NCBI GenBank assembly: GCA_028817905.1
Contig: JAPPOR010000544.1
Location: forward strand, 1 to 27,303
Length of the DNA stretch: 27,303 nucleotides
From: Myxococcales bacterium
GTDB taxonomy: Bacteria; Myxococcota_A; Polyangia; Polyangiales; JAFGIB01
Direction of reading: 5' to 3'
The notes beneath the pieces are model-generated. The model was not told the origin of the DNA, made no database searches, and worked only from the letters and a program-made list of their open reading frames with translations. Position 1 is the first letter of the stretch; each line of letters begins with the position of its first letter. Below are positions 4,671 to 26,057 of the stretch, piece after piece. Both the position numbers and the translations under genes were made by a program.

Positions 4671-4727
4671 TAGACCAGTGAGGTTCTCTACCACTGGTCC
4701 AACCTTTGGTTCGACCAGTGGTCTAAA
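4671..4727. promoter_or_regulatory. Putative TetR operator array: GACCAGTG-N11-CACTGGTC plus the compact palindrome GACCA-G-TGGTC
   Basis: The inverted repeats lie 14-70 bp upstream of the TetR start codon (4657, minus strand). Half-site TAGACCAGTG at 4671-4680, its inverse CCACTGGTC at 4691-4699, and the palindrome GACCAGTGGTC at about 4713-4723. Confidence 0.45.
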
Positions 4728-4748
4728 AATGTCGCAAGTCCGCCGGGC

Positions 4749-4754
4749 TGTCAA
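4749..4754 (-). promoter_or_regulatory. Candidate -35 hexamer (TTGACA on the minus strand) for the TetR-exporter operon
   Basis: Perfect TTGACA on the minus strand. About 17-18 bp downstream is a weak -10 (CATTTT/ATTTTT) that overlaps the second operator palindrome. Confidence 0.25.
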
Positions 4755-7398: not shown

Positions 7399-7444
7399 TA
7401 AGGCCGTAAGCGTAGCAGAACCTGTGGGGCCCTGTCCCGCCCCA

Positions 7445-7488
7445 GGGGCACGCAAGGGGCACGCAAGGGGCACGCAAGCGGCACACAG
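7445..7488. repeat. Direct 11-bp repeat array GGGGCACGCAA x3 plus one degenerate copy (GCGGCACACAG)
   Basis: Visible in sequence at 7445-7488. It lies in the divergent intergenic region between the lipoprotein gene (start 7398, minus) and the FAH gene (start 7643, plus). Confidence 0.85.
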
Positions 7489-7642
7489 TGATGGCCCGCG
7501 CGCGCAAAACATTTAGCCAGCGGTCGCTGACAACGGTGACCGTGGGGTGCATAAGTGTTAGCCAAGAGGGCTGTCAAGCGAGCTCGTGCACACTTTGCCG
7601 ATGGGCAGGGGGCACGATGCGACCCAGCACAGGAGCGATGCG

Positions 7643-9783: not shown

Positions 9784-12700
9784 CTACGATGGCCGTGTGC
9801 CGCGGTCGGTGCGCGTCACGTGGCCCGCTTCGGCCATCGGCCGTGCGTCGCCGGAGCGGACCAGTGCCGAGGCCACGGCGGAACACTGGGAGGCGATCCC
9901 TTCCCCCGTTGGGTCTTCGCACGGGGAGGCGGTCGTGAACAGGCCCACGAACATCAGCTCGCTGCGGACCTTGCAGCTGAGCACCATGACCCGGTGCTCG
10001 GTGCCGCGTTCGTCGACATAGGTCGCAGCGCCCGGCACCGTCAGCATGCGGGTCGCTTGTTCTTCCCGGGGGGGCGACGCGTTCGGCAGCTCATCGCCAA
10101 TGTGCTCGGCGAAGAAGAACCGTGCGAACGCTCGGTCCGCGTTCGTCGGTGGTGCCTGCTCCTGGCTCGCAACCAGGGACAGTTCACCGTCGCGTCCAAC
10201 CAGGTAGAGATGACCTCCCGCCGCGTGCGTGATGTTGCACAGAAGGTGCAGGGCCTGTCGCGCTCGAGCTTCCGGGTTGTGGCAAGTAGCGAGCTTCTTG
10301 GCATAGGCGCAAGCATCCGCGGTCAAGGTAGCGGTGTCGGCGCCGAACACCGACGCCTCAAAGTTGCTCAGGCCCAAGGTGATCTCCAGTCCGTTTCCCC
10401 GGGCTTCGTCCACCAGGCGCACGAGTTCGGGCGCTGCAGTCGGATTCGACGACTCACCGCGCCCGTGCAACGCCAACAGGGCGTAGCGCCTGGCGGCTTC
10501 CTCGTCGCGGGCCCACACGGCGATCTGTGCTCTCACGTGGAAGCTCGCGACGAGGTGCAGTCCACGGATGTCGTGGGCCTCGGTCCACTCGATCAGACGT
10601 TCGACCCGCGCTGCAGCGTGTTCGATGTCCCCGGCGCGGGCCTCCGCTAGCGCAAGGGCTCGGGCGATCGCCAGCCTCGAGACATCGATGTGTTCCGCAT
10701 GGCAGCGCTCGAGCGCTTCGCGAGCCAACTCGATCGCTTCGGGAAGGCGTCCCTGGGCCCTTCGGACGCTGACCAATCCAGCCACCGCCATCGCCCACGT
10801 GTCTTCCGACGAAAGGCGTCCCGGTTTGCCGGGTCGGCACAGCTCCAGTGCCTCTTGGAGCGGCGCCTCGGCCTGGTCCTCTTTGCCCTTGAAGAGCTGG
10901 AAGTAGCCGGTTGCCACATTGGCCGCGGGCGTCCAACGAGGGCTGCGCTTGGCCAGGGCCGACAGGCCCTCCATCGCGCGGTGAACCGATCCGAGGTCAC
11001 TCGCAAGGATCCCGGCTTCCAGGTCCGCGTGCCACCGTGGGACCAGCACGTGTCGGACATTCGAACGCAGTGCCAGCAGTTCGGCCTGCTTGCGAAACTC
11101 GTTGGCCCCAGGACCATCTCCCTGCATCAGGCGCGTGACCGCACGCGATTGCATCGCGTTGACGGCGTAGAGGCGATCGTCTGCGACCCGCTGGGCCCAC
11201 TCGTGGGCCGACTCACGCGCGAGCCGGGCCTCCAGCATCCCGATGAGATGCGCCAGCCCGTTCCGAATCGACTCCAGATAGGTCACCTGATCCCCTTCGA
11301 TCGTTTCCAGCGCTTCATGGGTGGTGACCAGGCGCCGGTGGGCGGCCAAGGTCCGGCCCAGGCACAGCGCCTCCTGGATCCCCAGGCAGTCCTGCCACAT
11401 GGCGTGGGCCGCGGGCGACAGGGGGGCGAGCGGCTCGAGCAGGGCAGGCAGGCTCGATAGCAGGTCCGTGTCCGCCACGCGGGAGCCGGTTGTGACCGCC
11501 GGAATCACGTAGAAGCAGAGCATCTTGATCGCTTCGTCAACCGGGTACACCCGCTCGCGCTCAGGGGTCTCTTCAAAGCGTGTGATCGCCCGTGTGAGCG
11601 CGCGCTGCAAGCGCTCGTGGGGATCGAGGGAGGCGGGCAGTGCGCGGTAGTCGAGCAGACCCGCGTCCCGCTCGAGCTGCGCGAGCCAGGCCGGGGCGTT
11701 GCGGTAGAAGACGCCTTCGTCTTGGGCGAGGATCGCGGCCGAGCACAACCCGAAGCGCAGGTCGTGCTCGGCGCGCTTGGAGCGACCGCTCGCGAGCAGC
11801 TGGACAAGGGCGCCCTCGCCCGTGGCAGCCACCCGATCGAAGTCCAGCTCGAGCGCCATATCGACCTGGTCGTCAAAGACCAAGGCGCACGTCGACAGTA
11901 CGTCGAGCGCCTCCTCCGAGCGTCCCGCCTCGTTGAGGTGGTGCGCGACCAGAAAACCCAGATCCTTGCCCTTCTGCTGTCTGCGAAACTCGGCCAGCGA
12001 CGTATGGGTCGCGCGTGCGTCAGCGGCACTCATGAGTGCTCGCAACGTGCCGGCTAGGGTGCGGTGGCGCAGGCTGTAAAAAAGGCCGTCGCCCTGCACC
12101 AGGTCGGCCTGCAGGAGAGCGAGCAGCGCACCTTCCAGTTGAGAGGCTGAAGCCTTGGGCGCCAGGTTGCGAAAGTCGTCGCGGCTAAGAACATCCTGGC
12201 CCAACAGTGCCAGCGCCTCGGCCAGCGTGCGGGCGAGCGGCGGGAGCCCCTCGATGCGTCGGACGAAGGCGTCCATTGCGGTAGTGGGCAGATCGTTTGC
12301 GTCCAGCTTGGCGGGCAGCGTCCACCGAGCGTCCTGGTAGTGGATGACGCCGTTGTCGACCAGATGCTGGGCCAGAGCCATGGTTTGTTGGGGACTTCCG
12401 AGCGCGACGCTGTGGATGCGGTCCGCCACAAACGCGACATTGGCGACGTCCCCGAACACGGATGCGACCAACGCGGCGCTTTCGGCAGGTGAGAGCGGGG
12501 CAAGGGTCGCCGCCTGGCCGTGCCTCGCCAGCATGTGGTAGGCGCCCGGCGCGCATTGGGTGGCATTTGGGTCAGAGGTGGTCAACAGCAGCAAGCGCTG
12601 ACGGGGGGCATCCATCGCGAGCTCCGCGAGCAGGGAAAGCGAAGGTTCGTCGATCCGTTCCAGGTCGTCGATGGTGATGGCCACCGCGTGCGTGTCGCAG

Positions 12701-14034
12701 ATGCGTGCGAGCCAGGCGCAGAGGTCCATCTGCAGACGCCCCCGTCCTTCGGGTGGATCGGCCAGTGATCGGATGGAACTGCCTGCGGTCGCGCCCTGGT
12801 TGTGCACGATCAGCTGCTCGCAGATACCTGCTTGTCGCGCCGTCGAACGCGCGACCGCTGGGATCTGCTGCAATAGCTGCTCGAACAGATCCTGCACGAC
12901 GCCGAACTGCCGCTCGGGGCCGACCGTGGCGCCGGAGCGAAGCACCACGGTGCCGAAGGTCTTGGCTTGCAGCGCACAGGCGTCCAGTATGCGCGAGCGG
13001 CCCAGTCCGGTTTCGCCCTGGAACAGGATGGTGTTGCCGACCCCGTGGAGCGCACGTCGCAAGTGATGGCGTACGCTGCGGAGCTCGGAAGCGCGGCCAA
13101 CGAGCACGGGCGTGTCGAGATAGGCGCGCGAGACTTCGATGGACTCGCGTTCGTGGGTGTTTGCGATGGCTTCGAGTCGGGGCATGACTTCGAAGGCGGA
13201 ACGCGGGCGCTGGGTCGGATCGATCCGCAGCAGCGAAGCGCACAGGGCGTCCAAGGCGGGGGGGATGCCGGGAGCATGGCGCGAAGGCGGGACCAGCTCG
13301 TGGTTCCAGGCGTGCCGCAGCTGTGAGAAGTCCTTGGCCGCGAAGGGCAGCTTGCGCGTCAGGGCGTAGTAGAGGGTGCCTCCAAAGGAAAACAGGTCTG
13401 AGCGGGCGTCGAGAGCGGCTCGGTGCAGGACTTCCGGCGCCACGAAGGCCGGCGTTCCGACGACCTCGGTGGCGGGACCCATCGGCATCAGCGCGCCGAA
13501 GTCGATCAACTTGGCGTGGCCGTCGCGGGTGCAGCGGACGTTTCGCGGGCTTACATCGCGATGCAGCAGGCGGCGCGAGTGGAGCAGTGCGAGCGACGAA
13601 CAGACCTCCAGCATCAGCGCGCAGACCCGCAAGGGGCTCAACGGCGAAAGCCCCTGGAGGTCGCCGCCATCGAGCAACTCCATGGTGTAGAAGGGGCCCG
13701 CCTGGTCGACCCCGTAGTCATAGACATCGATGATGCGCGGGTGGCTTAGCTGCGCGAGCGTATGGTACTCGCGCTCGAACATGGACACGCTCTGCCGTGG
13801 GGTCTTGTGGCGGGCCTGCGGTTGCAGGTTCTTGAGGGCGACCTCGGTCTGGCTGCCGACGTCCAGGGCGCGGTAGACCACGGCCATGCCGCCCCGCCCG
13901 AGCTCTTCCCCCAGGCGGTAGCGACCCCCAAGGAGTCGTGCCCGTGGCACGGAAGCGGCCGTCGGAACGGGTGGAGGCCTGCTGAAGCGCCTGGCTCCGA
14001 CAACCGGAGGGTCACTTTGCGTTTTCGCTGCCAT
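9784..14034 (-). CDS. Ser/Thr protein kinase fused to AAA/STAND-type NTPase, TPR-like helical repeats and a C-terminal GAF-like domain (1416 aa)
   Basis: Hanks kinase motifs: glycine loop GRGGMAVVY, VALK, HRDVSPRN, DFG and APE. Downstream P-loop-like LFQGETGLGRS and Walker-B-like ITIDDLERID. Then a long alpha-helical repeat region and a C-terminal GAF-like segment. The architecture is typical of myxobacterial PknK/MalT-like kinases. Confidence 0.85.
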   Translation of the reverse strand: MAAKTQSDPPVVGARRFSRPPPVPTAASVPRARLLGGRYRLGEELGRGGMAVVYRALDVGSQTEVALKNLQPQARHKTPRQSVSMFEREYHTLAQLSHPRIIDVYDYGVDQAGPFYTMELLDGGDLQGLSPLSPLRVCALMLEVCSSLALLHSRRLLHRDVSPRNVRCTRDGHAKLIDFGALMPMGPATEVVGTPAFVAPEVLHRAALDARSDLFSFGGTLYYALTRKLPFAAKDFSQLRHAWNHELVPPSRHAPGIPPALDALCASLLRIDPTQRPRSAFEVMPRLEAIANTHERESIEVSRAYLDTPVLVGRASELRSVRHHLRRALHGVGNTILFQGETGLGRSRILDACALQAKTFGTVVLRSGATVGPERQFGVVQDLFEQLLQQIPAVARSTARQAGICEQLIVHNQGATAGSSIRSLADPPEGRGRLQMDLCAWLARICDTHAVAITIDDLERIDEPSLSLLAELAMDAPRQRLLLLTTSDPNATQCAPGAYHMLARHGQAATLAPLSPAESAALVASVFGDVANVAFVADRIHSVALGSPQQTMALAQHLVDNGVIHYQDARWTLPAKLDANDLPTTAMDAFVRRIEGLPPLARTLAEALALLGQDVLSRDDFRNLAPKASASQLEGALLALLQADLVQGDGLFYSLRHRTLAGTLRALMSAADARATHTSLAEFRRQQKGKDLGFLVAHHLNEAGRSEEALDVLSTCALVFDDQVDMALELDFDRVAATGEGALVQLLASGRSKRAEHDLRFGLCSAAILAQDEGVFYRNAPAWLAQLERDAGLLDYRALPASLDPHERLQRALTRAITRFEETPERERVYPVDEAIKMLCFYVIPAVTTGSRVADTDLLSSLPALLEPLAPLSPAAHAMWQDCLGIQEALCLGRTLAAHRRLVTTHEALETIEGDQVTYLESIRNGLAHLIGMLEARLARESAHEWAQRVADDRLYAVNAMQSRAVTRLMQGDGPGANEFRKQAELLALRSNVRHVLVPRWHADLEAGILASDLGSVHRAMEGLSALAKRSPRWTPAANVATGYFQLFKGKEDQAEAPLQEALELCRPGKPGRLSSEDTWAMAVAGLVSVRRAQGRLPEAIELAREALERCHAEHIDVSRLAIARALALAEARAGDIEHAAARVERLIEWTEAHDIRGLHLVASFHVRAQIAVWARDEEAARRYALLALHGRGESSNPTAAPELVRLVDEARGNGLEITLGLSNFEASVFGADTATLTADACAYAKKLATCHNPEARARQALHLLCNITHAAGGHLYLVGRDGELSLVASQEQAPPTNADRAFARFFFAEHIGDELPNASPPREEQATRMLTVPGAATYVDERGTEHRVMVLSCKVRSELMFVGLFTTASPCEDPTGEGIASQCSAVASALVRSGDARPMAEAGHVTRTDRGTRPS

Positions 14035-14236: not shown

Positions 14237-15970
14237 ATGTGGGAAGCGATCGCGCTCGCAGCTGACCTGGGTGTCCTGACCGTCGGGTACTGGCTTTCGG
14301 ATTGGGCCATACGGGGAGGGGGCTTGTTGGGGGCGCTCGGACGCATTCGGTTGCTGCACGATGGCCCGACCGCCCTGGTCTTCATGGCGACCTATGCGGC
14401 GCTCTCGCCCCTGTGGTCATGGGAGCACGTTCCGGAAGGCGAGACGCTCCGATGGGTCGCCGCGGTGCTGGGGCTGGCGCTCGCCTGGCGCGCGGCGACC
14501 CGTGACATCGACGTGGTGCGCGGCAATCGGCAGACGCTCGTGCGCTTGCTGGTGCTCGCCAGTGCGGTCCTCACGTGGCTGTCCCCCGGGATGCTGGTCA
14601 GTACGTGCCTGCTGCTAACGACGCCGTTTGGCATGTGGCAGCACCACGCAACCCTGCCCATGCGCGTGCTTCAGGCGCTGCTGGCGTTTGTCGTGTTGCA
14701 ACCGTTGGTCAGCGGGCTCGGCGCCCTGCGAGATGCGTCGGCGCTGTTCCTGTTTCTGGTAACGATTCAGGTCTCGCACTACGTGGTGACCGCCCTGGCC
14801 AAGGGACACCTGGGTCCGCGCTGGTACTCGTGGCCGCTGGACAACCGCCTGCACCACATCGCCGCGAGCGCCTACAGTTGGGGTTGGGCGCGCTTCGTGC
14901 CCTGGGCGCGCTGGCGGCGCGTGGTCGCCGTGGTACGCGCGCTGGAGGTGCCGCTGCAAGTGGTCGTCTTCTTGCTCGAAGCGCTTTCGCCACTTGCGCT
15001 GCTGCACGCCCATGCTTCGGTCGGCTTCAGCATCGCCTTCGCCGGCTTTCACCTGGGTGTGTTCCTGCTTTCGGGTCTGCTTTTCTGGGAGTGGATCGTG
15101 ACTGACCTCGTGCTTGCGATGGCCGTCTGGCGGCTTTCCGCGGGGGCGGCCGCGGTCGCCTTTGGTCCCGGGGCGCTGTTGCTGGGGGTCGTGCTCATGG
15201 TGGCATTCCCCCTGCGTCACAGGCTTTGGCGCCCGATGTCACTCGGCTGGTGGGACACGCCCTTCACCCAGCGCATGCATTGGCGGGTGCGCGGTCGCAG
15301 TGGCGCCATGTACGGCCTATACGCGGACTTCATGGACCCCCACGAGCGCATCTACGGCAAGGTCCATGGCTACTTCCTCGCACCCGTGCCGGTCCTGACC
15401 TACCATCTTGGGGAGGCCTTTCGTCACGAGCTGCGGGACGGCTTGCGCGCGGCCGGAGGCGATCCCGGGCGGCTGGACGCGCTGCGCGAACAGTTCGGGA
15501 TCGAGCCCCGCGACGCCCGCCTGCTGGAGAACCACGAGACCTATCTTCAGCGGTTTTGTTGGGAGCTCAATCGGGGGGCTCGCAAGCATGTGCTGCCGTC
15601 GCGGTTACGCTTCCTCAAGGCCCCGGGGGGGCAGTGCTACTACTGGGGTGACTTGCCGGCGTACCGGCGCCAGGAGCCCATCGAAGAACTCGAAGTGGTC
15701 TATCGCGAGGAATACTTCGACGGCGAGGCGCTGCAGCGGCTGCGCGATGAGGTGGTGTTGCGTGTCCCGATCGAGCGAAGCTCCACGCCGCCACGGGCCG
15801 CTCGCGAGCCCACCCCCAAGGAACTCGACGATCACCTCCTTTCGTTCGCCGCTGGACGCTTGATTCGCCTACCGGGGCTGGGCGACGGGCTGGTGCACGC
15901 GGATGACGGTGTGCCGGGGTCGCGGGCGGGCGCGGCCGCCGGACCCGTTGCGCCACCCGATGAGGGTTAG
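14237..15970 (+). CDS. Polytopic integral membrane protein (at least 8 predicted TM helices in the N-terminal ~330 aa) with a C-terminal soluble domain; family not recognised
   Basis: The 577-aa ORF has many hydrophobic 20-aa stretches rich in W/L/A. The C-terminal ~230 aa is hydrophilic. It is divergent from the kinase gene across a 202-bp intergenic region. No motif is confidently assignable from sequence alone. Confidence 0.55.
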   Translation: MWEAIALAADLGVLTVGYWLSDWAIRGGGLLGALGRIRLLHDGPTALVFMATYAALSPLWSWEHVPEGETLRWVAAVLGLALAWRAATRDIDVVRGNRQTLVRLLVLASAVLTWLSPGMLVSTCLLLTTPFGMWQHHATLPMRVLQALLAFVVLQPLVSGLGALRDASALFLFLVTIQVSHYVVTALAKGHLGPRWYSWPLDNRLHHIAASAYSWGWARFVPWARWRRVVAVVRALEVPLQVVVFLLEALSPLALLHAHASVGFSIAFAGFHLGVFLLSGLLFWEWIVTDLVLAMAVWRLSAGAAAVAFGPGALLLGVVLMVAFPLRHRLWRPMSLGWWDTPFTQRMHWRVRGRSGAMYGLYADFMDPHERIYGKVHGYFLAPVPVLTYHLGEAFRHELRDGLRAAGGDPGRLDALREQFGIEPRDARLLENHETYLQRFCWELNRGARKHVLPSRLRFLKAPGGQCYYWGDLPAYRRQEPIEELEVVYREEYFDGEALQRLRDEVVLRVPIERSSTPPRAAREPTPKELDDHLLSFAAGRLIRLPGLGDGLVHADDGVPGSRAGAAAGPVAPPDEG

Positions 15971-16283: not shown

Positions 16284-16976
16284 TTGCAGGAGCTGCTGGC
16301 GCAAAGCTTCGCCTATCCAACGGTCGTGTGGAGCGTGCTGCTCGGCCTCGCGTCTTTCTATTGGTTGCTTGTTCTGGTGGGCGCGGTGGGTATGGAGGTA
16401 CTGGAGGGCAGCGTGGAAGGGGCGGCCGACGCTGCCGGTGCCGCTGGCGGGGGCCTAGCTGATATCGGTGAGGCAGCCGAGGCGGCGTCCAATGCGGCGA
16501 GCGCCCTGTCCGTCTTTGCCCTGCTGCGGCGACGGCGCGCTCCCCTGACGGTCAAGTTCTCCATGGTCACCCTGCTCGGGTGGTTGAGCTGCTGGTACGC
16601 GAGTGCGTGGCTCGGCGGGTTCGTCCCGGATGCCGTGCCGGTCGTCGCCTGGGGGACCGGCCTGCTCTTGCTAACCTTGCTCCTGGCGATTCCGGTGGCG
16701 GCCACGCTGCTGATCCCCCTCGAGCCACTCTTCGATACCCATGAAGCGCGGCGCCGCGGTCATCTCGTGGGCGAGGTCGTCGAAATCGAGACCAGTCGGG
16801 TGGACCGCAAGTTCGGCCAGGCGCGGCTCGAGGACGGTCAGGCGGGGATGATTCTCCAGGTGCGCTGCGACCCGAACCGGCAGCTCAGCCGAGGCAAGCG
16901 GGCCCTGATCCTGACCTACGACGAGGAGCAGGAGTTCTACGAAGTCGAACCGTACGATGACCTGTTGCAGAAATGA
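16284..16976 (+). CDS. NfeD/YqiJ-like membrane protein (N-terminal TM region plus C-terminal NfeD-type OB-fold)
   Basis: N-terminal and central TM helices, with a C-terminal GEVVEIETSRVDRKFGQARLEDGQAGMILQVRCD beta-rich segment typical of NfeD short-form OB domains. These classically pair with SPFH/flotillin genes. The ORF-track start is a TTG at 16284, preceded by GGAAGGGGGA (16266-16275). The true start could be a downstream GTG. The stop overlaps the flotillin start (ATGA at 16973-16976). Confidence 0.7.
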   Translation: MQELLAQSFAYPTVVWSVLLGLASFYWLLVLVGAVGMEVLEGSVEGAADAAGAAGGGLADIGEAAEAASNAASALSVFALLRRRRAPLTVKFSMVTLLGWLSCWYASAWLGGFVPDAVPVVAWGTGLLLLTLLLAIPVAATLLIPLEPLFDTHEARRRGHLVGEVVEIETSRVDRKFGQARLEDGQAGMILQVRCDPNRQLSRGKRALILTYDEEQEFYEVEPYDDLLQK

Positions 16977-19054
16977 GAGGTGACCAAGTGGACTTGATCC
17001 AACCGTGGGTGATCGGCTTCGCCCTGCTCGTACTCGTCGTGCTGGGCGCGCTGGTGATGTTTGCGCGCTTCTATCGCAAGGTGGACCAGGGCAAGGCGCT
17101 GATCATCAACACCATGGCCTCGGAGCCGATGGTGACGTTCACGGGCGGCATCGTCGTCCCCATCTTGCACCGCGCAGAGATCATGGAGATCTCGGTCAAG
17201 ACCATCGATATCGACCGGCGTGGCAAGGAGGGGCTGATCTGCAAGGACAATATCCGCGCCGATATCAAGGTTGCCTTCTTCGTACGCGTCAACAAGACCC
17301 GCGGCGACGTGCTCAAGGTGGCCCAGTCGATCGGATGCGACCGGGCGTCGGATCAGAAGACCCTCGAGACACTGTTCGTCGCCAAGTTCTCCGAGGCGCT
17401 CAAGACGGTCGGCAAGCGGATGGAGTTCGAAGAGCTCTATACGATGCGGGACGTGTTCCGAGATCAGATCATCGAGGTGATCGGCAAGGACCTCAACGGG
17501 TACGTCCTGGACGATGCCGCGATCGACTATCTGGAACAGACCCAGGTCGAGCTATTGGACCCGCAGAACATCTTGGATGCTCAGGGCATTCGCAAGATCA
17601 CCCAGATGACTGCGGCCCAGAGCGTCGCGACCAATGACCTGCGGCAGGAGGAACGCAAGTCGATCACGCGCCAGAACGTGGACGCCCAGGAGAAGATCCT
17701 GGAGATGGAGCGCCAGCAGGAAGACGCGGTCGCCAAGCAGAAGCGCGAGGTCGAGAGCATTCGCGCGCGCGAAGAGGCGGAAACACTGCGTGTGCAGGCC
17801 GAGGAGCGGCAGCGGTCGGAGCTGGCCCGCATCAAGGCCGACGAGGCGATCGCCGTCGAGGCGCAGAACCAGCAGCGCCAAGTCGAGATCGCCCAAAAGG
17901 CGCGCGAGCGGGCCGTCCAAGTCGAGGCGGAGCGGGTCGAGAAGGACCGTCAGCTCGAGGCGATCGCGCGCGAGCGCGAGACCGAACTGTCGCGCATCGA
18001 CAAGGAAAAATCGCTGGAGGTGGAGCGCAAGGTGATTGCAGACACCATCTCGCAGCGAATCGCGGTCGAAAAACAGGTGGCCGAGGAGGAGGAGCGCATC
18101 AAGGACCTGCGGGTGTTGGCGGAGGCCAAGCGCAACAAGGACGCGACGGTGATCGCCGCCGAGGCCCAGGCGCAGGAAGTGGTGGTCAGGCAGGTCAAGC
18201 AGGCGGAGGCGGAGGAGTTGTCGGCCAAGCACAAGGCCTCCGAGCAGGTCACGATCGCGGAGGCCGAGCTCGAGTCGGCCGACAGGCTGGCGCGCGCCAA
18301 GATCCGGCTGGCCGAGGGCACCCAGGCTGAACAGGCCGCCCAGGGGCTGGCCCAGGTGCGCGTTAAGGAAGCGGACGCGCTGGCGATCGAAAAAGAGGGC
18401 AAGGCGAACGCCGAGGCGAACCGGAATATGCTGGTCGCCGAAGCAGCGGGGGCCGAAGCCAAGGGGATGGCGGAGGTCAAGGTCAAGGAGGCCGAGGCCG
18501 CGGCCATCGAGCGAGTCGGTGCCGCCGAGGCCCAAGCGATCAAGGTCAAGATGGAGGCCGAGGCCGCTGGCCTGGCCAACAAGGCCGACGCGATGCAGAA
18601 GCTCGATGGCCTGGGTCGCGAGCACGAAGAGTTCAGGATACGCCTCGAAAAGGACAAGGAGGTCGAGCTTTCTTCGATCGCGGCGCGCAAGGAGGTGGCG
18701 GGTCGCAATGCGGACATTCTCTCGCAGGCAATGGCGAACGCGCGTATCAACCTCGTCGGAGGCGACGGTGCCTTCCTGGACCAGTTCTTCCGGGCCGTTT
18801 CCGTTGGCCAGTCCCTCGATGGTGTGGCCCACGGCAGCGATGCCGGCCGCGCGATGCTTACCGAGTATGTCGACGGGGACGCGAGCTTTCGCGAGGATTT
18901 GAAGGAGGTCCTGACGAAGGGGCGGTTCCAGCCGGAGGATCTGAAGAACCTCAGTCTGTCCGCGCTTTTGGCGCAGATGGCTGCCGGCGCGGACGGGACC
19001 AGGAAGAAGGCGCTGGAGGACCTCCTGCAGCGTGCCAAGGACTTGGAGTCCTGA
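16973..19054 (+). CDS. Flotillin / SPFH (band-7) family protein, YqiK/FloT-like (693 aa)
   Basis: N-terminal membrane anchor WVIGFALLVLVVLGALVMFARFYRK. SPFH domain. Long Glu/Ala/Arg/Gln-rich coiled-coil region with flotillin-type EA repeats (AEAEA...). ATGA-coupled to the upstream NfeD-like gene. Confidence 0.85.
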   Translation: MRGDQVDLIQPWVIGFALLVLVVLGALVMFARFYRKVDQGKALIINTMASEPMVTFTGGIVVPILHRAEIMEISVKTIDIDRRGKEGLICKDNIRADIKVAFFVRVNKTRGDVLKVAQSIGCDRASDQKTLETLFVAKFSEALKTVGKRMEFEELYTMRDVFRDQIIEVIGKDLNGYVLDDAAIDYLEQTQVELLDPQNILDAQGIRKITQMTAAQSVATNDLRQEERKSITRQNVDAQEKILEMERQQEDAVAKQKREVESIRAREEAETLRVQAEERQRSELARIKADEAIAVEAQNQQRQVEIAQKARERAVQVEAERVEKDRQLEAIARERETELSRIDKEKSLEVERKVIADTISQRIAVEKQVAEEEERIKDLRVLAEAKRNKDATVIAAEAQAQEVVVRQVKQAEAEELSAKHKASEQVTIAEAELESADRLARAKIRLAEGTQAEQAAQGLAQVRVKEADALAIEKEGKANAEANRNMLVAEAAGAEAKGMAEVKVKEAEAAAIERVGAAEAQAIKVKMEAEAAGLANKADAMQKLDGLGREHEEFRIRLEKDKEVELSSIAARKEVAGRNADILSQAMANARINLVGGDGAFLDQFFRAVSVGQSLDGVAHGSDAGRAMLTEYVDGDASFREDLKEVLTKGRFQPEDLKNLSLSALLAQMAAGADGTRKKALEDLLQRAKDLES

Positions 19055-19066
19055 GCCAGGCTGAGA

Positions 19067-22000
19067 ATGGCTGAAGATCGCGATAGCGCCCAGGGGGGAA
19101 CGGCGGCCGCGCCGGGTCAGGTGGCCGAGTCGGAGCTGGCCGGGGGCAGCTACGAGTTGATCCGGGAGCGCCTCGTGGTGCAGGCCCGGGGTCTCGGTGA
19201 GCTTTCGGCTGCGTTGAACACTCGTCGCCAGGAGGTCTTTGGAGGCACGCAACTCGCTGTGGTCGGCAATGCGCGCGTGCGCACGGAGAACAACTGCCGG
19301 CCGCGGGACATCGTCCAGGTCAGTGGCCACATGCTGTTCGGGTACAACGTGTTCATCGGGCTGCGGACCGAGACGCGCATTGAAGACGTGCTGGGGCTCT
19401 ATGACCTGTCGGATGCCCAAGACGCGTTCGGGCTTGAGTTGCTTGCGGCCGACCATGCGGACACTGCGTTCCTGCACGCCCCCGAGTTCGTACGCGATTT
19501 CGAGGAGCTCTGCCGCTACTACAAGGAGACTCGCCTCGTTCGCCTGACACGCAATGAAGCGCACCTGCTGGCCGTGTTTCAGATCGGGCAGAGCGACAGT
19601 GATCTGCGGATCTTCCGCTTTCAATTGTCACCCGAGGGTGTCCGCTACATCGACAATCGCGGCGACCGCGAGTACCGCTTTCCCCCATCGCATGCGTTCG
19701 AGTGGACCCAAACCACGCGCGACCAGCAGGTCGCCGGTCGTGTGCCGCACGCGAATATCGAAGACGAGCTCTTCGTCGAAACGAGCGGGGGCGACCTCAC
19801 GCTCAAGGTCGAGAACAACACGGAGACGGGGGAGGGCATCTACAACGAGCCCGTCGAGGAAGACAATCAGAGCCTGGACGACGCCGAGATTCACTACGCA
19901 CGCGTCGGTGCGTTGATCCTGCTCAAGGTGTTGCCCTATCGCGAGGAGCGCTATCGCTACCTGGTGTTCGCGACGCGGTCCCATCGCGTCCAGCGGATCG
20001 ACGCGATCGGAGAGGCCTGCCTCGAGCTGCCCGAGGATCACGGGATCATCTTTCCTGGTGGGTACTTTCTTCAGGATGGGCAGTACAAGGTCTTCGATGG
20101 AGACTTTTCTGGCTTTCAGTACGAGCGTCGCGTGCTCGCGCCCAATGGTGAGGACGTCTTGTACGTCTTTCACAGGCACCTCGATGGTCACTATGTGCTG
20201 TTCCCCTACAACCTGATCCGCAAGGAGGTGCAGACGCCGATTCACTGTCACGGATACAGCCTGTTTGAGGATGGCCGGATGGTGATCTTCCGGTCCACGT
20301 CCGATGAGCCTACCCGCGTGCACGCGATGCAGCTGTGGCAAACGCCGTTCGTGTCAGAGGAGTTTGCTGCACAGGCGCCGCAGGGTGAGGGATTGCTGGA
20401 GAATATCGGCAACGCCGAACTGGTGCGCGGCATTTCCGATTGCTACAGCATCCGCCGAGCGGTCGAGGAGACCGAGCCATCACGGCAGGTCTACGAGGAC
20501 TTGATAGCCGCCATCGGGCGCACGCTCGATGCCTACTACTGGCTCGAGGAAGCCGAGGTCGGCAATCTGCGCGCCGCGCTCGAGGAACTGCGCTCGACCA
20601 CAGAGCTCATCGTGGACGAGTTCGTCAAGGTCACCGCCCTCAAAGAGCAGGCGCAGACCGCGCTCTCCGATGCCGAGCGGGCACAGGTCGATCTGCTCAA
20701 TCGCAGCCGCCCGGATGTGTTCAGGTCGGTGCAGGAGTTCATGGGTGGGTTGACGGGGCTTCGGACCCAGCGGGGCCATCTCATCACGCTCAAGGAGGTA
20801 CGCTACATTGACGCGGGCCGCCTGGATGAACTGGAGCAGCAAGTCGTCGAGGCCTTTGATCGCTTGAGTCGTGCCACCGCGGCTTTCTTGTTGCAGGGCG
20901 AGGCGCTCGCGCCCCTGCGCAAGGAGATCGAGGAACTGCTTCAGGGGATCGAGGGCACCAACAAGACCCATGAGCTTGCAGCCCTTGGAGAGCGGCTCGA
21001 GGAAACCTCCGAGGGCCTGACGGTCCTCAGCGAGGTGGTCGGTAGCCTGGAGGTCGAAGATCCCGTCGAGCGGACCGCCATCCTGGAGCACATTTCCGAG
21101 GTGTTCGCGCAGCTCAACAGGGTGCGCGCGACCTTCCAGAATCGCAAGAAGGAGCTGCTGAGCGTAGAGGGCAAGGCGGAGTTTGCAGCTCAATTTACGC
21201 TGTTTTCGCAGAGCGTGACCAGCGCCATGGGCCTGGCGGACACGCCCGAGCGTTGCGATGAGCAGCTGTCGCGTTTGATGGTGCAACTGGAGGAACTGGA
21301 GGCGCGCTTCAGCGAGTTCGATGAATTCCTGGCGGACCTGACCAGCAAGCGCGAGGAGGTCTATCAGGCGCTGGAGCAGAAGAAGCAGCAGTTGCTCGAC
21401 GAACGCCAGCGACGCGCCGAGAACCTTCTTTCGGCCGCCGATCGCATCCTTGTGGGGATCGAGCGGCGCGCCAAGGGCTTTGCGGAAGCCGACGAGCTCA
21501 ACGCCTACTTCGCGTCCGATCCGATGGTGTTGAAGCTGCAGGAACTTGCCGAGCGGCTGGAGGACCTCGGTGACGCCCCGCGGGCGGAAGGGCTGCGCGC
21601 GCGTCTGAAAACGGAGCGCCAGAACGCCGCGCGCAGCCTGCGCGACAAGCTTGAGTTGTTCGAGGAGGGCCAGGCGGTCGTCAAGTTCGGCCAGCATCGC
21701 TTCGCGGTCAACCAGGAGGCGCTCGAGCTCACCTTGCTCGCTTCCGGGGATGACATGCAGTTGGCGCTGTCCGGCACCAACTTCCGGGAGCCGGTTTCCG
21801 ATAGCGACTTCGAAGCCACCCGGGACTACTGGGACCAGCATCTCGTGTCGGAGACGCCCGACGTCTATCGCGGGGAATACCTGGCGGCGTCGATCCTGTT
21901 CGACGCGCAGGCCCATCGCGATGGGTTGTCGCTGCAGGGCCTGCGGGATGCTGAGCGCACCGAGGAGGGGCTTTTTGAGCTGGTGCGCAAGCAGGCCGCG

Positions 22001-24598
22001 GCGCGCTTTGATGAGGGCTACGAGCGGGGGCTCCACGACGCCGACGCGACGCGGATTCTCGAAGGCTTGCTGCACCTGCACGACGGCGCGGGCCTGTTGC
22101 GGTTCTCGCCCGACGCGCGGGCCGTGGCCGTGCTGTTCTGGGCGCTGGCCCCGGAGGGCGTTGCCGACGTCCCCAAGGAAGCATGGCGAAGGCGGGCGAG
22201 GAGCCTTCGCCAGTTGCGCGAGGTGTTTGAGCATTCTTCTGCGGTGGGCGAGCTTGCGGGGGAGCTTGGTGCGGCCATCGGGCGCTTTTGTCAGGAGCAA
22301 GGTCTCGACGTGTCGGCCGCGCAGGTGCGCGAGGCCGGGGCCTATCTTGTGGAGGAGCTCGGCGCTGAGGAAGTGCGTTTCGCCAGCAGTGCGGGGGCCG
22401 AGCGTTTGCGCACGACCCTGTTGGACCAGCTCCACTCGCAGGGGACTCGAGCGCGCTTCGAGCAGGACCTGGAGGCGCTGCAGGAGCGTGTTGCTGGCGG
22501 GATCGGGCTGGCACGGGCCTGGCTCGAGGCCCTGAGCCGCAGGACGAACGCCTCGCTCGATGCGAACGATGCGGGCGCCTCGCGGCACGTCTTGCTGGAG
22601 GCGGCTGTACAGCTGTTTACGTTACACCGAGTCGCGTACGTGCAGAGCAGCGCCCGCACGGTGGCGACCGTGGAGGGGCTCTTGGGCCAGCATCCGCGCA
22701 TCGTCGGGCGCAAGCTCGAGTTGCGTCTGGATGAGTTCCTCGCGCGGCTTTCGGAGTTCATTCATACGCGTGTGCCGGGGTATCGGCGCTACCGAGAACT
22801 TCGCCACGCGCTGCTTGAGCGAGAGCGTGCGCGTCTACGTCTCGACGAGTTCATGCCGCGCGTGCTGTCGTCTTTCGTGCGCAACCGGCTGATCAACGAA
22901 GTGTACCTTCCACTCATCGGCGACAATCTCGCCAAGCAGTTGGGCGCTGTGGGTGACAGCAAGCGTACGGACTTGATGGGCCTGCTGTTGCTCATCTCGC
23001 CTCCCGGGTACGGAAAGACCACCCTGATGGAGTACATCGCCAGTCGCCTTGGACTGGTCTTCATGAAGATCAACGGGCCCTCCCTGGGCCACGGGGTCAC
23101 TTCGCTCGATCCGGGGCAAGCGGATAGTGCGACGGCTCGCCAGGAAGTGGAGAAGGTGAACCTGGCCTTTGAGATGGGCAATAACGTGATGCTCTATCTC
23201 GATGACATCCAGCATACGCACCCGGAGTTCCTGCAGAAGTTCATCTCGTTGTGCGATGGTCAGAGGCGCATCGAGGGCGTATGGAAAGGCAACACGCGTA
23301 CCTATGACCTGCGTGGCCGTCGCTTTTGCGTGGTGATGGCGGGCAATCCCTATACCGAGAGCGGTGAGAAGTTCCAGATCCCGGACATGCTCGCCAACCG
23401 CGCCGACACTTACAACCTGGGTGACATTCTGGGTGGCTCCCAGGAGGCGTTCGCCCTGAGCTACGTGGAGAACTCGATCACCAGTAACCCGGTGCTGTCC
23501 CAGCTTGCCAATCGCGACCAGGCGGATGTCTACCGTTTCGTCAGGCTGGCCCAGGGCGAGGAGGTGCGCACCAGCGAGCTGAGTCATGGCTACTCGAGCG
23601 TCGAGGTCGATGAGATCGTGGCGGTGCTCAGGCGGATGTTCCAGGTGCGAGACATTCTCCTATCGATCAACCGGACCTATATCGCGTCGGCGTCTATGGA
23701 CGACCGCTTCCGGACCGAGCCACCGTTCAAGCTGCAGGGAAGCTACCGCAACATGAACAAGCTGGCCGAGAAGGTCGTGGCTGCGATGAATGACGCGGAG
23801 CTGCAGCAGCTCATTTCTGACCACTATCAAGGGGAGGCCCAGACCCTGACCACGGGTGCCGAGCAGAATCTGTTGAAGCTGGCCGAGCTGCGCGGGGTCC
23901 TGACCGAGGAGCAAGCCGCGCGCTGGGCCGCGCTGAAGAAGGGCTTCCAGCGTGTGCAGAGCGTTGGCGGGGGCGACGATGATCCGGTGACGCGTGTAGT
24001 CGGCCAGCTCAGCGGTGTTGGGGTTCAGCTGGAGGGGATTCGCGACGCGCTATCGGCCGCCTCGGAGCGAGCCCTGGCTGCACGCGCGGAGCAGGAGCGG
24101 GCGCTGGTGCCCGAGGAACCGGTAGAAACCGCGGCCGAAGACGCTGCCTTCGCGCAGCACCGGGAGATGCTGACCGCACGCCTCGGGCAAATTGTGGAGG
24201 CGGTCGAGGGGCTGGCTCGACGCAATGTCGACGTTCAGGTCCAGGCCGACGTGGGTCGTGATCTCTTGGGTCTGATGGAGCAGCATGGCCAGCTGGTGCG
24301 GGAGGGCATCATGCCCCTGGTGCAGCATACGGTTCGCCAGGCGGCCCAGGCCGCCCGGGCAACCCAGACAGCTCAGCAGGTATCCCAGCCGACGAGCGCC
24401 AGCCCTGGTGCGGCCGTAGGCCCTCCGGGTGCAGCCCCGGTCGAGCACGACCTGCACTGGAACATCGGCCACATTCTGGGCCTGACCCGGGCGATCGCCG
24501 AGCGCATCGACGACATGCAACGGGGCCAACGAATGATCCTGCGCGACCTTTCCGCCCGGCGAAAACGGGCGGCCGCTGCGCGCAAGGCGAAGGAATAG
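19067..24598 (+). CDS. Giant (1843 aa) protein: beta-rich N-terminal region, ~800-aa helical/coiled-coil middle, C-terminal AAA+ ATPase (MoxR/dynein AAA_5-like) and a basic tail
   Basis: Walker A SPPGYGKTTLMEY (about 23001-23030). Walker B VMLYLDDIQH (about 23188-23213). Sensor-1-like VVMAGNPYTE (about 23330-23355). The N-terminal ~440 aa are rich in short beta-strand-like Y/F/V segments. The middle is heptad-like E/L/R/Q-rich. The start ATG at 19067 is 12 nt after the flotillin stop. Confidence 0.8.
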   Translation: MAEDRDSAQGGTAAAPGQVAESELAGGSYELIRERLVVQARGLGELSAALNTRRQEVFGGTQLAVVGNARVRTENNCRPRDIVQVSGHMLFGYNVFIGLRTETRIEDVLGLYDLSDAQDAFGLELLAADHADTAFLHAPEFVRDFEELCRYYKETRLVRLTRNEAHLLAVFQIGQSDSDLRIFRFQLSPEGVRYIDNRGDREYRFPPSHAFEWTQTTRDQQVAGRVPHANIEDELFVETSGGDLTLKVENNTETGEGIYNEPVEEDNQSLDDAEIHYARVGALILLKVLPYREERYRYLVFATRSHRVQRIDAIGEACLELPEDHGIIFPGGYFLQDGQYKVFDGDFSGFQYERRVLAPNGEDVLYVFHRHLDGHYVLFPYNLIRKEVQTPIHCHGYSLFEDGRMVIFRSTSDEPTRVHAMQLWQTPFVSEEFAAQAPQGEGLLENIGNAELVRGISDCYSIRRAVEETEPSRQVYEDLIAAIGRTLDAYYWLEEAEVGNLRAALEELRSTTELIVDEFVKVTALKEQAQTALSDAERAQVDLLNRSRPDVFRSVQEFMGGLTGLRTQRGHLITLKEVRYIDAGRLDELEQQVVEAFDRLSRATAAFLLQGEALAPLRKEIEELLQGIEGTNKTHELAALGERLEETSEGLTVLSEVVGSLEVEDPVERTAILEHISEVFAQLNRVRATFQNRKKELLSVEGKAEFAAQFTLFSQSVTSAMGLADTPERCDEQLSRLMVQLEELEARFSEFDEFLADLTSKREEVYQALEQKKQQLLDERQRRAENLLSAADRILVGIERRAKGFAEADELNAYFASDPMVLKLQELAERLEDLGDAPRAEGLRARLKTERQNAARSLRDKLELFEEGQAVVKFGQHRFAVNQEALELTLLASGDDMQLALSGTNFREPVSDSDFEATRDYWDQHLVSETPDVYRGEYLAASILFDAQAHRDGLSLQGLRDAERTEEGLFELVRKQAAARFDEGYERGLHDADATRILEGLLHLHDGAGLLRFSPDARAVAVLFWALAPEGVADVPKEAWRRRARSLRQLREVFEHSSAVGELAGELGAAIGRFCQEQGLDVSAAQVREAGAYLVEELGAEEVRFASSAGAERLRTTLLDQLHSQGTRARFEQDLEALQERVAGGIGLARAWLEALSRRTNASLDANDAGASRHVLLEAAVQLFTLHRVAYVQSSARTVATVEGLLGQHPRIVGRKLELRLDEFLARLSEFIHTRVPGYRRYRELRHALLERERARLRLDEFMPRVLSSFVRNRLINEVYLPLIGDNLAKQLGAVGDSKRTDLMGLLLLISPPGYGKTTLMEYIASRLGLVFMKINGPSLGHGVTSLDPGQADSATARQEVEKVNLAFEMGNNVMLYLDDIQHTHPEFLQKFISLCDGQRRIEGVWKGNTRTYDLRGRRFCVVMAGNPYTESGEKFQIPDMLANRADTYNLGDILGGSQEAFALSYVENSITSNPVLSQLANRDQADVYRFVRLAQGEEVRTSELSHGYSSVEVDEIVAVLRRMFQVRDILLSINRTYIASASMDDRFRTEPPFKLQGSYRNMNKLAEKVVAAMNDAELQQLISDHYQGEAQTLTTGAEQNLLKLAELRGVLTEEQAARWAALKKGFQRVQSVGGGDDDPVTRVVGQLSGVGVQLEGIRDALSAASERALAARAEQERALVPEEPVETAAEDAAFAQHREMLTARLGQIVEAVEGLARRNVDVQVQADVGRDLLGLMEQHGQLVREGIMPLVQHTVRQAAQAARATQTAQQVSQPTSASPGAAVGPPGAAPVEHDLHWNIGHILGLTRAIAERIDDMQRGQRMILRDLSARRKRAAAARKAKE

Positions 24599-24690
24599 CG
24601 GAGCCTCCCGAGGCTCGGCCCGAGCCTCGCCGGAGGCTGGCCCCGAGTCGTCCGCGAGACACAACGGCCACGGTGCCACGCAGCGCCTTG
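24599..24690 (+). terminator. Two tandem short GC hairpins, then a 9-bp stem, right after the giant gene's stop; possible intrinsic terminator without a U-tract
   Basis: gagcct-cccg-aggctc and agcct-cgccgg-aggct at 24601-24640, and gtgccacgc...gcgtggcac around 24673-24700. There is no T-run, which is usual for a high-GC genome. Confidence 0.3.
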
Positions 24691-24788
24691 CCAGGGCGTG
24701 GCACGGGGGTTGCTTGAGGCAGTCCATTGGCGACCTGGTGAGTCGATACTGCATTCGGCTTGCGCGTACAGGAAAGCAGGGAGGCGAG

Positions 24789-26057
24789 ATGAGAAGAACG
24801 GAGCGAGCAAGCCGGTGGATGAACCTCGGGACCGACGGGCTTCATGCGGGACCTGCATTGGGCCTTGCATTGGGCCTTGCGTTGGCCCTGTCGACGACCG
24901 CGATCGCCGGGTGCCTGGGTGAGTCGGAAGCCCACGAGGTGGCGCCGGCCGAGAGTGGCCTGGCAGAACTGCGCCCAGTGCAAGGAGATTATCCGGTCAC
25001 GGGCAGCGGCGGTGAAGTCACCTGTGCCGAATACGAGTACGACGGACCGCAGGACGGGCTCACGTACATGGTTTCCGAGCGCTACGTATTCAGCAAGATG
25101 GCGGCGTTGCTGGAGACAGACGAGGAGTTCAAGCAGGCGGCGCTAAGTCAGGGGTTGGGCACGGTGGCGACCTGCGGGCAGGCGCGTCGCATGAAAACAC
25201 TTTGGCGAGAGCATATCGAAGCGCGTCCTTCCCTTGAGCACGACCAGGTGGCGGAGGATCCCGACACAAGGATCACCGAAGAGCTGGTAGAAAAGATCGC
25301 GGACGGTCGGGCGTACAGTCATCGCCCCACGGTTCGGCTAGTCACCTGGAAGAGCGCGTCCAGTACCGAGAACGTTTTTGGCTGCTCAGGCGTGTTCATT
25401 GCAGATCGAGTTATACTGTCAGCAGCGCACTGCTTCCCCAGCGATGCGCGGATGCGGATCACGGTGCGCAGTGCGGATGGTTGCGTTTTCCCCAAGGGTG
25501 CGGACTGCAATGTGGACCCAGGCAACAACCTCGTCACGGTCACAAGGCACCCGCTGTATTCGGGCAACGCCTTCCACGATATCGCCGTGCTCGAGTTGCC
25601 GGAGGAGCCGGGGTCACCGATGAATGACAGCGCCAACTGGATGCGGATCGCGACGAAGAACGCCTCGAGGGGTCAACGATACTGGCAGACTGGATGGGGT
25701 GCGAACAATCACAACGGAGATGGCTCCAACACGTTGAGGTTGACGAACCGAGATATCGGCATCGACTGGGTGGGCGACCATCATTTCATCTACAACGTGG
25801 TTCGGGGCGAAGGACGCGGATGCAAGGGAGACTCCGGTGGTCCAATGATTGCCACCGGGCTCGCGAGTGCCAATGTCGTGATGGGCCTGAACAGTGAGGG
25901 CGACCTGGATCGCCTGTCCGATGCGTGCCCATCGCCTGGAGAAAAGGTTCGCTCCACGGCCCTGGTCGACAACGTTGCATGGATCGAAGGTCAGATCGGA
26001 CGCATCTGCCAGGAGTTCTCCGGCAATGCTGGCTTCACCTACAAGCGTTGCTGGTGA
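24789..26057 (+). CDS. Secreted trypsin-like serine protease (peptidase S1), probable lipoprotein
   Basis: Signal peptide plus lipobox ...LALSTTAIAGC. Catalytic His in ILSAAHCF, Asp in HDIAVLEL and Ser in GDSGGPM. GGGAGG at 24779-24784 sits before the ATG at 24789. The ORF-track start at 24714 is a TTG with no ribosome-binding site. Confidence 0.8.
   Translation: MRRTERASRWMNLGTDGLHAGPALGLALGLALALSTTAIAGCLGESEAHEVAPAESGLAELRPVQGDYPVTGSGGEVTCAEYEYDGPQDGLTYMVSERYVFSKMAALLETDEEFKQAALSQGLGTVATCGQARRMKTLWREHIEARPSLEHDQVAEDPDTRITEELVEKIADGRAYSHRPTVRLVTWKSASSTENVFGCSGVFIADRVILSAAHCFPSDARMRITVRSADGCVFPKGADCNVDPGNNLVTVTRHPLYSGNAFHDIAVLELPEEPGSPMNDSANWMRIATKNASRGQRYWQTGWGANNHNGDGSNTLRLTNRDIGIDWVGDHHFIYNVVRGEGRGCKGDSGGPMIATGLASANVVMGLNSEGDLDRLSDACPSPGEKVRSTALVDNVAWIEGQIGRICQEFSGNAGFTYKRCW

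Follow-up and report, generated by a model that had tools for sequence, protein, structure and literature searches.

The predicted ATPase encoded at positions 19067 to 24598 (+) of contig JAPPOR010000544.1, from a Myxococcales bacterium (assembly GCA_028817905.1), is almost certainly a member of the DUF3686-DUF7902-AAA+ family, set in a membrane context. The stretch analysed, referred to here as the window, comprises 27,303 nucleotides. Judged by sequence comparison, the protein is an ordinary member of this widespread and catalogued family, which has thousands of homologues in many phyla. The gene is a single uninterrupted open reading frame (ORF), its coordinates including the stop codon, and the product has 1843 residues and a mass of roughly 200 kDa. 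The strongest functional clue is the flotillin operon in which the gene lies. Since nearly every family member has its gene beside that of a flotillin-like membrane scaffold, the protein probably acts on membranes, and not in DNA repair. With about even confidence, it is proposed here to be a cytosolic protein that uses ATP to remodel or regulate membrane scaffolds of flotillin (and PspA). A preliminary description, made from the sequence alone, had set the protein apart by its length and layout. The full-length match to DUF3686, DUF7902 and AAA now places it in a known family, and the main outcome is thus a correction: the protein is one of thousands built alike, catalogued by Pfam and already noted in a comparative-genomics paper.

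Family membership is carried by the Pfam matches. DUF3686 (PF12458) covers residues 45-491 (nucleotides 19199-20539) with an E value of 2.4e-200 and 666 bits against a cutoff of 25, and the match is complete, extending over profile positions 4-448 of 448. It is followed by DUF7902 (PF25472) at residues 612-696 (nucleotides 20900-21154; E 1.7e-26, 92.7 bits against a cutoff of 26). Over residues 1307-1432, the generic AAA profile (28.8 bits) scores higher than AAA_5 (25.8 bits against a cutoff of 22, E 1.2e-5), both being weak matches that lie just over their cutoffs; in distant homologues, AAA_5 scored 19.7, 20.4 and 22.6 bits, values described as under the cutoff. More than 5335 homologous clusters were found at E<=1e-10. 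The best 120 homologues, compared for length and Pfam content, are all 1658-2044 residues long, are 55-64% identical to the ATPase and carry the same Pfam set, and one identical ENA entry was found in addition to them. The nearest non-identical relative is 64% identical. In distant members of about 1600-1650 residues, the positions of DUF3686, DUF7902 and AAA are unchanged. Further members come from Deinococcus, Proteus, Vibrio, Halomonas, Hymenobacter and Streptomyces, with an ATPase module that is 60-71% identical, and whole-protein identity across phyla is about 50%.

The AAA+ module is equally distinctive when searched by itself. A phmmer search with residues 1260-1640 against 1.84 billion representative proteins returned only 917 matches at E<=1e-3 and 387 at E<=1e-30, and in the full-length matches the module always lay at about residue 1200-1300. 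So few matches, at so fixed a position, therefore point to a sequence-isolated clade with a fixed architecture. NCBIfam gave only sub-threshold RuvB and Cdc48 matches to the Walker A region of the ATPase. A search of PDB chains, run both with the protein alone and with a profile of 63 sequences, matched only some 35-70 residues around Walker A, in p97, Rix7, NVL, RuvB and similar proteins; it follows that no family member has a solved structure.

The conserved gene context was established in a set of one genome per species, collected by a pattern scan with LQGSYRNM as the family-wide pattern, in which at least 595 genomes held a relative. The counts given here come from the best 80 of these genomes, with the window genes compared by tblastn, and represent Myxococcota, Actinomycetota, Gammaproteobacteria, Planctomycetota, Acidobacteriota and others. 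A flotillin-like gene lies immediately 5' of the ATPase gene in 74 of the 80 loci, at 49-62% identity, and a YqiJ-like gene takes the same position as in the window in 66, the loci that lack trio genes being mostly contig ends. The other flanking genes of the window, those for a 577-residue membrane protein and a trypsin-like protease, are conserved in none of the 80.

In the window, the first gene of this conserved trio (16284-16976, +) encodes a YqiJ/YuaF (short NfeD)-like membrane protein of 230 residues, with a hydrophobic N-terminal part and a beta-rich C-terminal part; its TTG start is uncertain. The protein itself has no Pfam match, and its assignment to YqiJ is indirect, by way of the 3 of 21 aligned homologues that match YqiJ_N (best E 8e-5). 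Its stop codon overlaps the ATG of the second gene by 4 nt (ATGA, 16973-16976). This second gene (16973-19054, +) encodes a flotillin-like SPFH protein of 693 residues, composed of an N-terminal transmembrane segment, a Band_7/SPFH domain at residues 36-219, helices rich in E, A, K and Q, and a C-terminal domain. The Band_7 match reaches an E value of 1.5e-11 when the N-terminal 225 residues are scanned alone. Pfam scans of the full-length protein were empty even at E<=10, likely because the E/A/K/Q-rich region triggers the composition filter of HMMER, an annotation pitfall. The ATG of the ATPase gene follows 12 nt after the stop codon of the flotillin-like gene.

The same operon has been described in a comparative-genomics study (PMC11237479, mSystems 2024), whose supplement labels the ATPase "Betapropeller+Coiled-coil+AAA-ATPase". 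According to that study, some loci add CesT/Tir-PspA and phospholipase D genes, the abbreviated form occurs widely among bacteria and archaea, and the authors propose that membrane-linked complexes are assembled in a chaperone-like manner, by analogy with ESCRT systems. The present ATPase agrees with theirs in its Pfam domains, their order, the length class, the position in the operon and the invariant motifs. Compared with their CesT/Tir-PspA-YqiJ/YuaF-flotillin operons, that of the window is the short form of three genes and lacks PspA, CesT-like and phospholipase D genes. In gammaproteobacterial loci, sequence reading together with gene position suggests three additions, namely two upstream proteins, one of about 209 residues placed like the CesT-like gene product and one of about 233 residues with PspA-like features, and a downstream protein of about 228 residues with an HKD (phospholipase D-type) motif. 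A survey of SPFH proteins in P. aeruginosa makes no mention of the family ATPase (PMC13086221).

The trio is also found on mobile or secondary replicons. The 425-kb plasmid pQBR103 of Pseudomonas fluorescens carries it (locus L081, NC_009444.1 87136-106269), following genes for DUF2491, DUF350, DUF1190 and glutathionylspermidine synthase, which are polyamine genes of the PspA-type neighbourhood; its "SPFH domain-containing protein" is 44% identical over 613 residues to the flotillin-like protein of the window. Megaplasmids or chromids of Deinococcus, Streptomyces, Vibrio and Hymenobacter likewise carry the trio. The occurrence on plasmids, megaplasmids and chromids therefore indicates a cassette that moves horizontally.

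Some irregularities were observed among the loci. In pQBR103, a gene for an MvaT/MvaU-type nucleoid protein lies immediately downstream on the opposite strand. Insertions of about 4 kb in one locus (L016) and of more than 6 kb in another (L027) separate the flotillin-like gene from the ATPase gene, and in Labilithrix sp. (L023) neither a flotillin-like nor a YqiJ-like gene could be detected in the 7 kb upstream of the ATPase gene. Opposite the flotillin-like and ATPase genes of the window, antisense ORFs of 362-702 residues occur at 17552-19624 (-), 20480-22588 (-) and 17950-19038 (-). In 39 of the 80 loci, an ORF is again found antisense to the flotillin gene (55 ORFs), and these ORFs look like a by-product of high GC content and E/A-rich codon bias, not genes.

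The layout of the ATPase was modelled by AlphaFold2 in two overlapping pieces, with an alignment of 62 homologues as input. The piece covering residues 1-1100 gave a predicted local distance difference test (pLDDT) of 85 and a predicted template modelling score (pTM) of 0.54, and the piece covering residues 851-1843 gave values of 84 and 0.72. Domain layout, blade number and rod shape were taken from predicted secondary structure and Foldseek matches. The protein is soluble and has no transmembrane segment, its maximum 19-residue Kyte-Doolittle hydropathy being 1.24. The roughly 1290 residues before the AAA+ module had been taken for an unusually long helical spacer, a view that the models contradict, for the region is divided among a beta domain, a helical rod, a small beta domain and an all-alpha domain.

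After a disordered N-terminus (residues 1-27) and a helix (residues 28-58), the models place an all-beta domain with about 26-27 strands at residues 64-425 (19256-20341), propeller-like with roughly 6-7 blades, which forms the core of DUF3686. The preliminary description had suggested that the fold of this region be examined, with a propeller as one candidate. Foldseek returned 40 PDB matches at E<=1e-3 for the N-terminal piece, most of them beta-propellers, including CyRPA, PON1, WD40 proteins and the clathrin terminal domain, with low query template modelling (TM) scores of 0.09-0.13; the label given in PMC11237479 is an independent call of a beta-propeller. Some of the matches are enzymatic six-bladed propellers (PON1, GH43, acylaminoacyl peptidase), and a catalytic or metal-binding role, instead of a purely binding one, is conceivable. 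Invariant polar residues observed within residues 64-425 include C77, H228, E249, N251, E261, D272, D312, E362, D363, H419 and Q422. The top Foldseek matches for residues 1-1100 are chains in which an N-terminal beta-propeller precedes a helical region, namely the coat proteins clathrin heavy chain, Nup155/Nup133, IFT-A and CORVET/HOPS, at E values of about 1e-6. The TM scores of 0.09-0.13 apply to these as well, the rod of the ATPase has the look of spectrin-like bundles, not of an alpha-solenoid, the coat proteins have no AAA+ module, and there is no evidence of homology between them and the ATPase.

The helical rod follows at residues 443-864 (20393-21658) and contains DUF7902. Its roughly 15 helices have 4-58 residues each and are separated by loops of 1-8 residues; with such helices and such short loops, the chain would fold back into bundles and form no continuous stalk. 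Its best structural matches are tandem spectrin repeats, and it is best described, as far as the models go, as a rod of folded-back, spectrin-like bundles. The long coiled-coil arm proposed earlier is therefore retained only as a helical rod, since the modelled helices would form folded-back bundles and not a continuous two-stranded coiled coil. A crude heptad score, with the 99% shuffle level as its threshold, was exceeded only at about residues 631-700, 731-760 and 1640-1670. The heptad periodicity claimed for the middle of the protein is thus present in the first two of these stretches but not in the rest of the middle. Self-BLAST, and hhalign comparison of the propeller halves and of the rod halves, detected no significant internal repeats, so that blades and bundles are not recognisable as repeats in the sequence.

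Beyond the rod lies a small beta domain of five short strands (residues 871-909, 21677-21793), predicted by the first model at a pLDDT of 60-77 and by the second at about 90, and then an all-alpha domain of about 12 helices (residues 913-1185, 21803-22621), with a pLDDT mostly above 90. The latter has no match in Pfam or in the PDB-sequence search. It was considered as an ATPase fold and rejected, as it has no parallel beta-sheet, and a second degenerate ATPase or a nuclease within residues 913-1290 was likewise rejected, the region being all-alpha with small strands and giving no profile matches. The segment leading into the ATPase (residues 1191-1292, 22637-22942) contains three strands, a 37-residue helix (1221-1257) and a helix running into the module, and has a net charge of +8. 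Two expectations of the preliminary description are borne out here. Nothing catalytic was detected upstream of the AAA+ module by Pfam, NCBIfam or PDB-sequence search, and neither Pfam nor AlphaFold2 indicates an additional degenerate ATPase or nuclease domain that would explain the length.

The alpha/beta core of the AAA+ module occupies residues 1293-1452 of the 1843 (22943-23422), as located by AlphaFold2, Pfam and Foldseek. This agrees with the single P-loop module that had been placed at about residues 1300-1480, and with the remark that so C-terminal a position is atypical for MoxR/AAA_5 proteins. Walker A (PPGYGKTT, residues 1312-1319, nucleotides 23000-23023) is the only P-loop in the protein. 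Walker B (MLYLDDIQH, residues 1375-1383) has DD and not DE, sensor 1 (VVMAGNP, residues 1422-1428) contains Asn1427, and box VII (PDMLANRAD, residues 1439-1447) contains Arg1445. Residues 1336-1363 form an invariant non-aromatic loop. The family motifs PPGYGKTT, LDDIQH, MAGNPYTE, PDMLANRAD and LQGSYRNM are all present at the expected positions. They are invariant, or almost so, in 63 aligned proteins and in 67 locus-encoded ones. Among the latter, Walker A was found in 67/67, LDDIQH or VDDIQH in at least 62/67 and PDML[AS]NRAD in 67/67. By these counts, the Walker B DD is a family trait. DD in place of the Walker B DE is associated in AAA+ proteins with slow or regulated hydrolysis, and DnaA uses a DD Walker B; by this analogy, the invariant DD suggests slow or regulated hydrolysis in the family.

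Between Walker B and sensor 1, AlphaFold2 places a beta-hairpin with strands at residues 1401-1406 and 1409-1414. The Foldseek matches of the second piece are RuvB, MCM, NorQ, CbbQ2, ClpA/B and Lon, the highest target-normalised TM scores being those of CbbQ2 (0.62) and NorQ (0.55-0.60), with RuvB and MCM comparable by E value. On account of these matches and of the hairpin, the modelled module is placed among the AAA+ groups with a beta-hairpin before sensor 1, though not uniquely with MoxR; it would lie close to MoxR and RuvB-like proteins, at a distance from the classical clade. The likeness to the MoxR proteins RavA, CbbQ and NorQ lies in the best core superpositions (CbbQ2 and NorQ) and in this hairpin, and the MoxR motif layout "...NP...G...LP.A.LDRF" is paralleled by "...GNP...G..F.IPD.L.NR.D" in the ATPase. 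The differences are considerable. MoxR proteins have about 250-500 residues, an N-terminal ATPase and a VWA partner, whereas the present protein has 1843 residues and a C-terminal module, and no VWA domain was found in it or in its conserved neighbours. The canonical MoxR Walker B is hhhhDE, whereas the family has DD, and the sequence similarity is marginal.

The core is followed by the lid and a post-lid helical domain that carries the invariant LQGSYRNM at residues 1556-1563 (residues 1459-1633, 23441-23965), and by a variable C-terminal extension (residues 1634-1843, 23966-24595) with four long helices, low-confidence linkers and an A/P-rich stretch, at a pLDDT of 33-84. The protein ends in a basic tail, RRKRAAAARKAKE, at residues 1831-1843. 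The C-terminal part had been described as about 360 residues with a coiled-coil stretch and a tail rich in K and R. The region after the core comes to about 390 residues, and the long helices, the A/P stretch and the basic tail are all there. The tail, however, is no feature of the family, since a net charge of at least +4 in the last 25 residues occurs in only 14 of the 120 homologues. From the sequence comparison, the last 200 or so residues, including the tail, are regarded as lineage-specific.

Conservation follows the same division of the chain. Mean identity to the 62 homologues is highest in the AAA+ core (84%), followed by the lid (65%), residues 1191-1292 (64%), the propeller-like domain (60%), the helical rod (58%) and the all-alpha domain at residues 913-1185 (46%). 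It falls to 28% at residues 1634-1720 and to 11%, with 42% gaps, in the last 120 residues. Rod and propeller are thus conserved and therefore under selection, which is not what would be expected of loose spacers; being conserved about as well as the lid, they argue for specific interactions.

The function proposed for the ATPase can be put as a sequence of steps. The AAA+ modules would assemble into a ring, probably a hexamer, as in other AAA+ proteins, and the rods and propellers would project outward from it as arms. These arms could dock on the cytoplasmic flotillin/NfeD scaffold, and on PspA where its gene is part of the operon, and ATP binding with slow or regulated hydrolysis would serve to build, dismantle or remodel the scaffold when the envelope is stressed. 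Several points weigh against this proposal. The interaction with flotillin or PspA is deduced only from gene order, ring formation is assumed by analogy with other AAA+ proteins, and with the Walker B DD the protein might hydrolyse ATP very weakly, in which case it would be a nucleotide switch and not a motor. A full-text literature search returned no experimental study of any family member. Furthermore, FloA-NfeD of S. aureus is reported to work without ATP (Ukleja 2024), and most flotillin operons lack the family ATPase; flotillin has therefore no general need for such an enzyme.

A role close to the proposed one would be that of a chaperone acting on clients, in which the flotillin/NfeD cage recruits or corrals the ATPase, in the manner of HflK/C with FtsH and of prohibitins with m-AAA proteases, and the ATPase acts on other membrane substrates instead of the scaffold, for example unfolded or mislocalised proteins captured by the propeller. 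Operon linkage supports this role equally, and gene order cannot separate it from the remodelling of a scaffold. The combination of an SPFH cage with an AAA+ machine is an established pattern, as in FtsH-HflK/C (PMC13220708), and the flotillin microdomains of S. aureus stabilise unfolded proteins (PMC11222466). The invariant loop at residues 1336-1363 stands in the usual pore-loop position but has no aromatic-hydrophobic pore-loop motif; no protease domain was found by Pfam, and processive unfoldases do not usually have a Walker B DD. A client-directed role is the main rival and is considered rather unlikely. It is quite improbable that the locus aborts phage infection by means of an NTPase (nucleoside triphosphatase) with a propeller sensor and membrane effectors (SPFH, and phospholipase D in some loci). 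The family does occur on megaplasmids and chromids and on pQBR103, some of its loci have an HKD (phospholipase D-type) protein downstream, and its build resembles the large NTPase-plus-repeat-sensor architectures that are common in defence systems. PADLOC, on the other hand, gave no significant match beyond composition-driven or Walker A matches, and the very high conservation across phyla (60-71% in the AAA+ module, about 50% over the whole protein) and the fixed three-gene core within varying surroundings are unlike fast-evolving defence islands; the neighbours in the window are envelope and housekeeping genes.

A dynein- or SMC-like device, in which a coiled-coil stalk transmits ATP-driven movement, or a purely structural scaffold, would account for the helical region of about 420 residues with its partial heptad periodicity, for the marginal Pfam match to AAA_5 ("dynein-related") and for a weak PADLOC match of residues 490-860 to the SMC-like LmuB. 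That last match is confined to low-complexity helices and is probably driven by composition, and a stalk is at odds with helices of at most 58 residues and loops of 1-8 residues, which indicate folded-back bundles. Dynein and midasin have six AAA+ modules and the ATPase one; its rod lies N-terminal to the module, ending about 430 residues before it, and does not emerge from within. The likeness to SMC and dynein stalks raised in the preliminary description is accordingly abandoned, and a device of this kind has little chance of being the right answer. The database name is still harder to defend, and kinship with SbcC, Rad50 or SMC, with a function in DNA repair, is hardly credible. In favour of it stand the labels (Pfam DUF3686 "ATPase involved in DNA repair", NCBI "DNA repair ATPase") and weak RuvB matches in the Walker A region, which amount to 18-19 bits where the family cutoffs are 27-299. 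SMC, Rad50 and SbcC have a split ABC head with a signature motif and an antiparallel coiled coil of hundreds of residues, whereas the ATPase has at its N-terminus the beta domain of DUF3686, in which there is no P-loop, its longest modelled helix has 58 residues, and ABC-type head, signature motif, zinc hook and hinge are all missing. No SMC_N or Rad50 profile matched the ATPase, no cluster with a nuclease (SbcD/Mre11) or a kleisin was found in the 80 loci, and the conserved neighbours are membrane proteins. The name "DNA repair ATPase" is unsupported by sequence, fold or gene context, and it probably spread from a coiled-coil-driven match to the COG "ATPase involved in DNA repair".

For the remodeller or regulator of flotillin scaffolds favoured here, the closest known systems are those in which an AAA+ ATPase works with a membrane scaffold. 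With bacterial HflK/C-FtsH and mitochondrial prohibitin-m-AAA, the family shares an SPFH scaffold coupled genetically or physically to an AAA+ ATPase. FtsH and m-AAA are membrane-anchored proteases of the classical clade, whereas the present ATPase is soluble, belongs to another AAA+ clade, has a propeller and a rod, and lacks a protease domain. With Vps4 and ESCRT-III, the likeness is that an ATPase is encoded together with a membrane-remodelling polymer, since a PspA-like gene is present in gammaproteobacterial loci, and PspA and Vipp1 are bacterial relatives of ESCRT-III. The ATPase differs from Vps4 in having no match to the MIT domain or Vps4_C and in possessing the hairpin before sensor 1, and it is not of the classical clade; in the window, no PspA gene is adjacent, and the resemblance is functional and hypothetical only. 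A resemblance to Vps4-ESCRT-III or to FtsH-HflK/C would be one of function, without homology to either.

A bolder version of the same idea is that the family supplies the missing energy source of bacterial flotillin and PspA (ESCRT-III-like) scaffolds, with a six-armed ring, each arm a spectrin-like rod with a propeller at its tip, that would grip the cage or the PspA polymers and spend ATP on assembling or dismantling them; this is a speculative extension and is regarded as doubtful. If it were true, the ATPase would be a non-homologous functional counterpart of Vps4 on ESCRT-III, and its layout of propeller and helical arm would have converged on that of eukaryotic membrane-coat proteins. 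The dynamics of flotillin and PspA systems in bacteria have no known ATP-dependent regulator, and a study of the family could address how membrane microdomains and membrane-repair scaffolds are controlled. A Vps4-like ATPase for PspA appears to be absent in bacteria, according to a recent review (PMC7619361, 2025).

Downstream of the ATPase gene, GC-rich inverted repeats follow the stop codon at 24600-24705 (+), namely GGAGCCTCCCGAGGCTC... and GTGCCACGC...GCGTGGCAC, and may constitute a terminator lacking a T-run; a consensus scan for promoters and terminators was uninformative in a sequence of 65% GC. The next gene, at 24714-26057 (+), encodes a secreted trypsin-like protease, for which the ATG at 24789, preceded by GGAGG, is a likelier start than the TTG at 24714. 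Upstream of the trio, a polytopic membrane protein of 577 residues with a soluble C-terminal half is encoded at 14237-15970 (+); it has no match in Pfam, NCBIfam or PADLOC and no counterpart in the 80 loci.

Farther upstream, on the opposite strand, the gene at 9784-14034 (-) encodes a protein of 1416 residues that combines a Ser/Thr kinase with AAA_16 (STAND-type NTPase) and TPR, a typical myxobacterial signalling protein; similar kinase-STAND-TPR genes were detected by tblastn in 11 of the 80 loci, at no fixed position. The cluster at 51-4754 (-), composed of an ABC ATPase, two MacB/FtsX-type permeases and a 503-residue protein with a LolA-like domain, resembles a system for lipoprotein or envelope export. 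Within it, two called ORFs, 773-2341 and 2011-3246, share about 330 nt, and at least one start is probably over-extended. Finally, the gene at 4882-7512 (-) encodes a protein of 876 residues with a YkuD L,D-transpeptidase domain at residues 422-530 and a C-terminal Peptidase_M74 (MepA-like murein endopeptidase) domain at residues 684-871, an unusual fusion of cross-link-forming and cross-link-cleaving enzymes.

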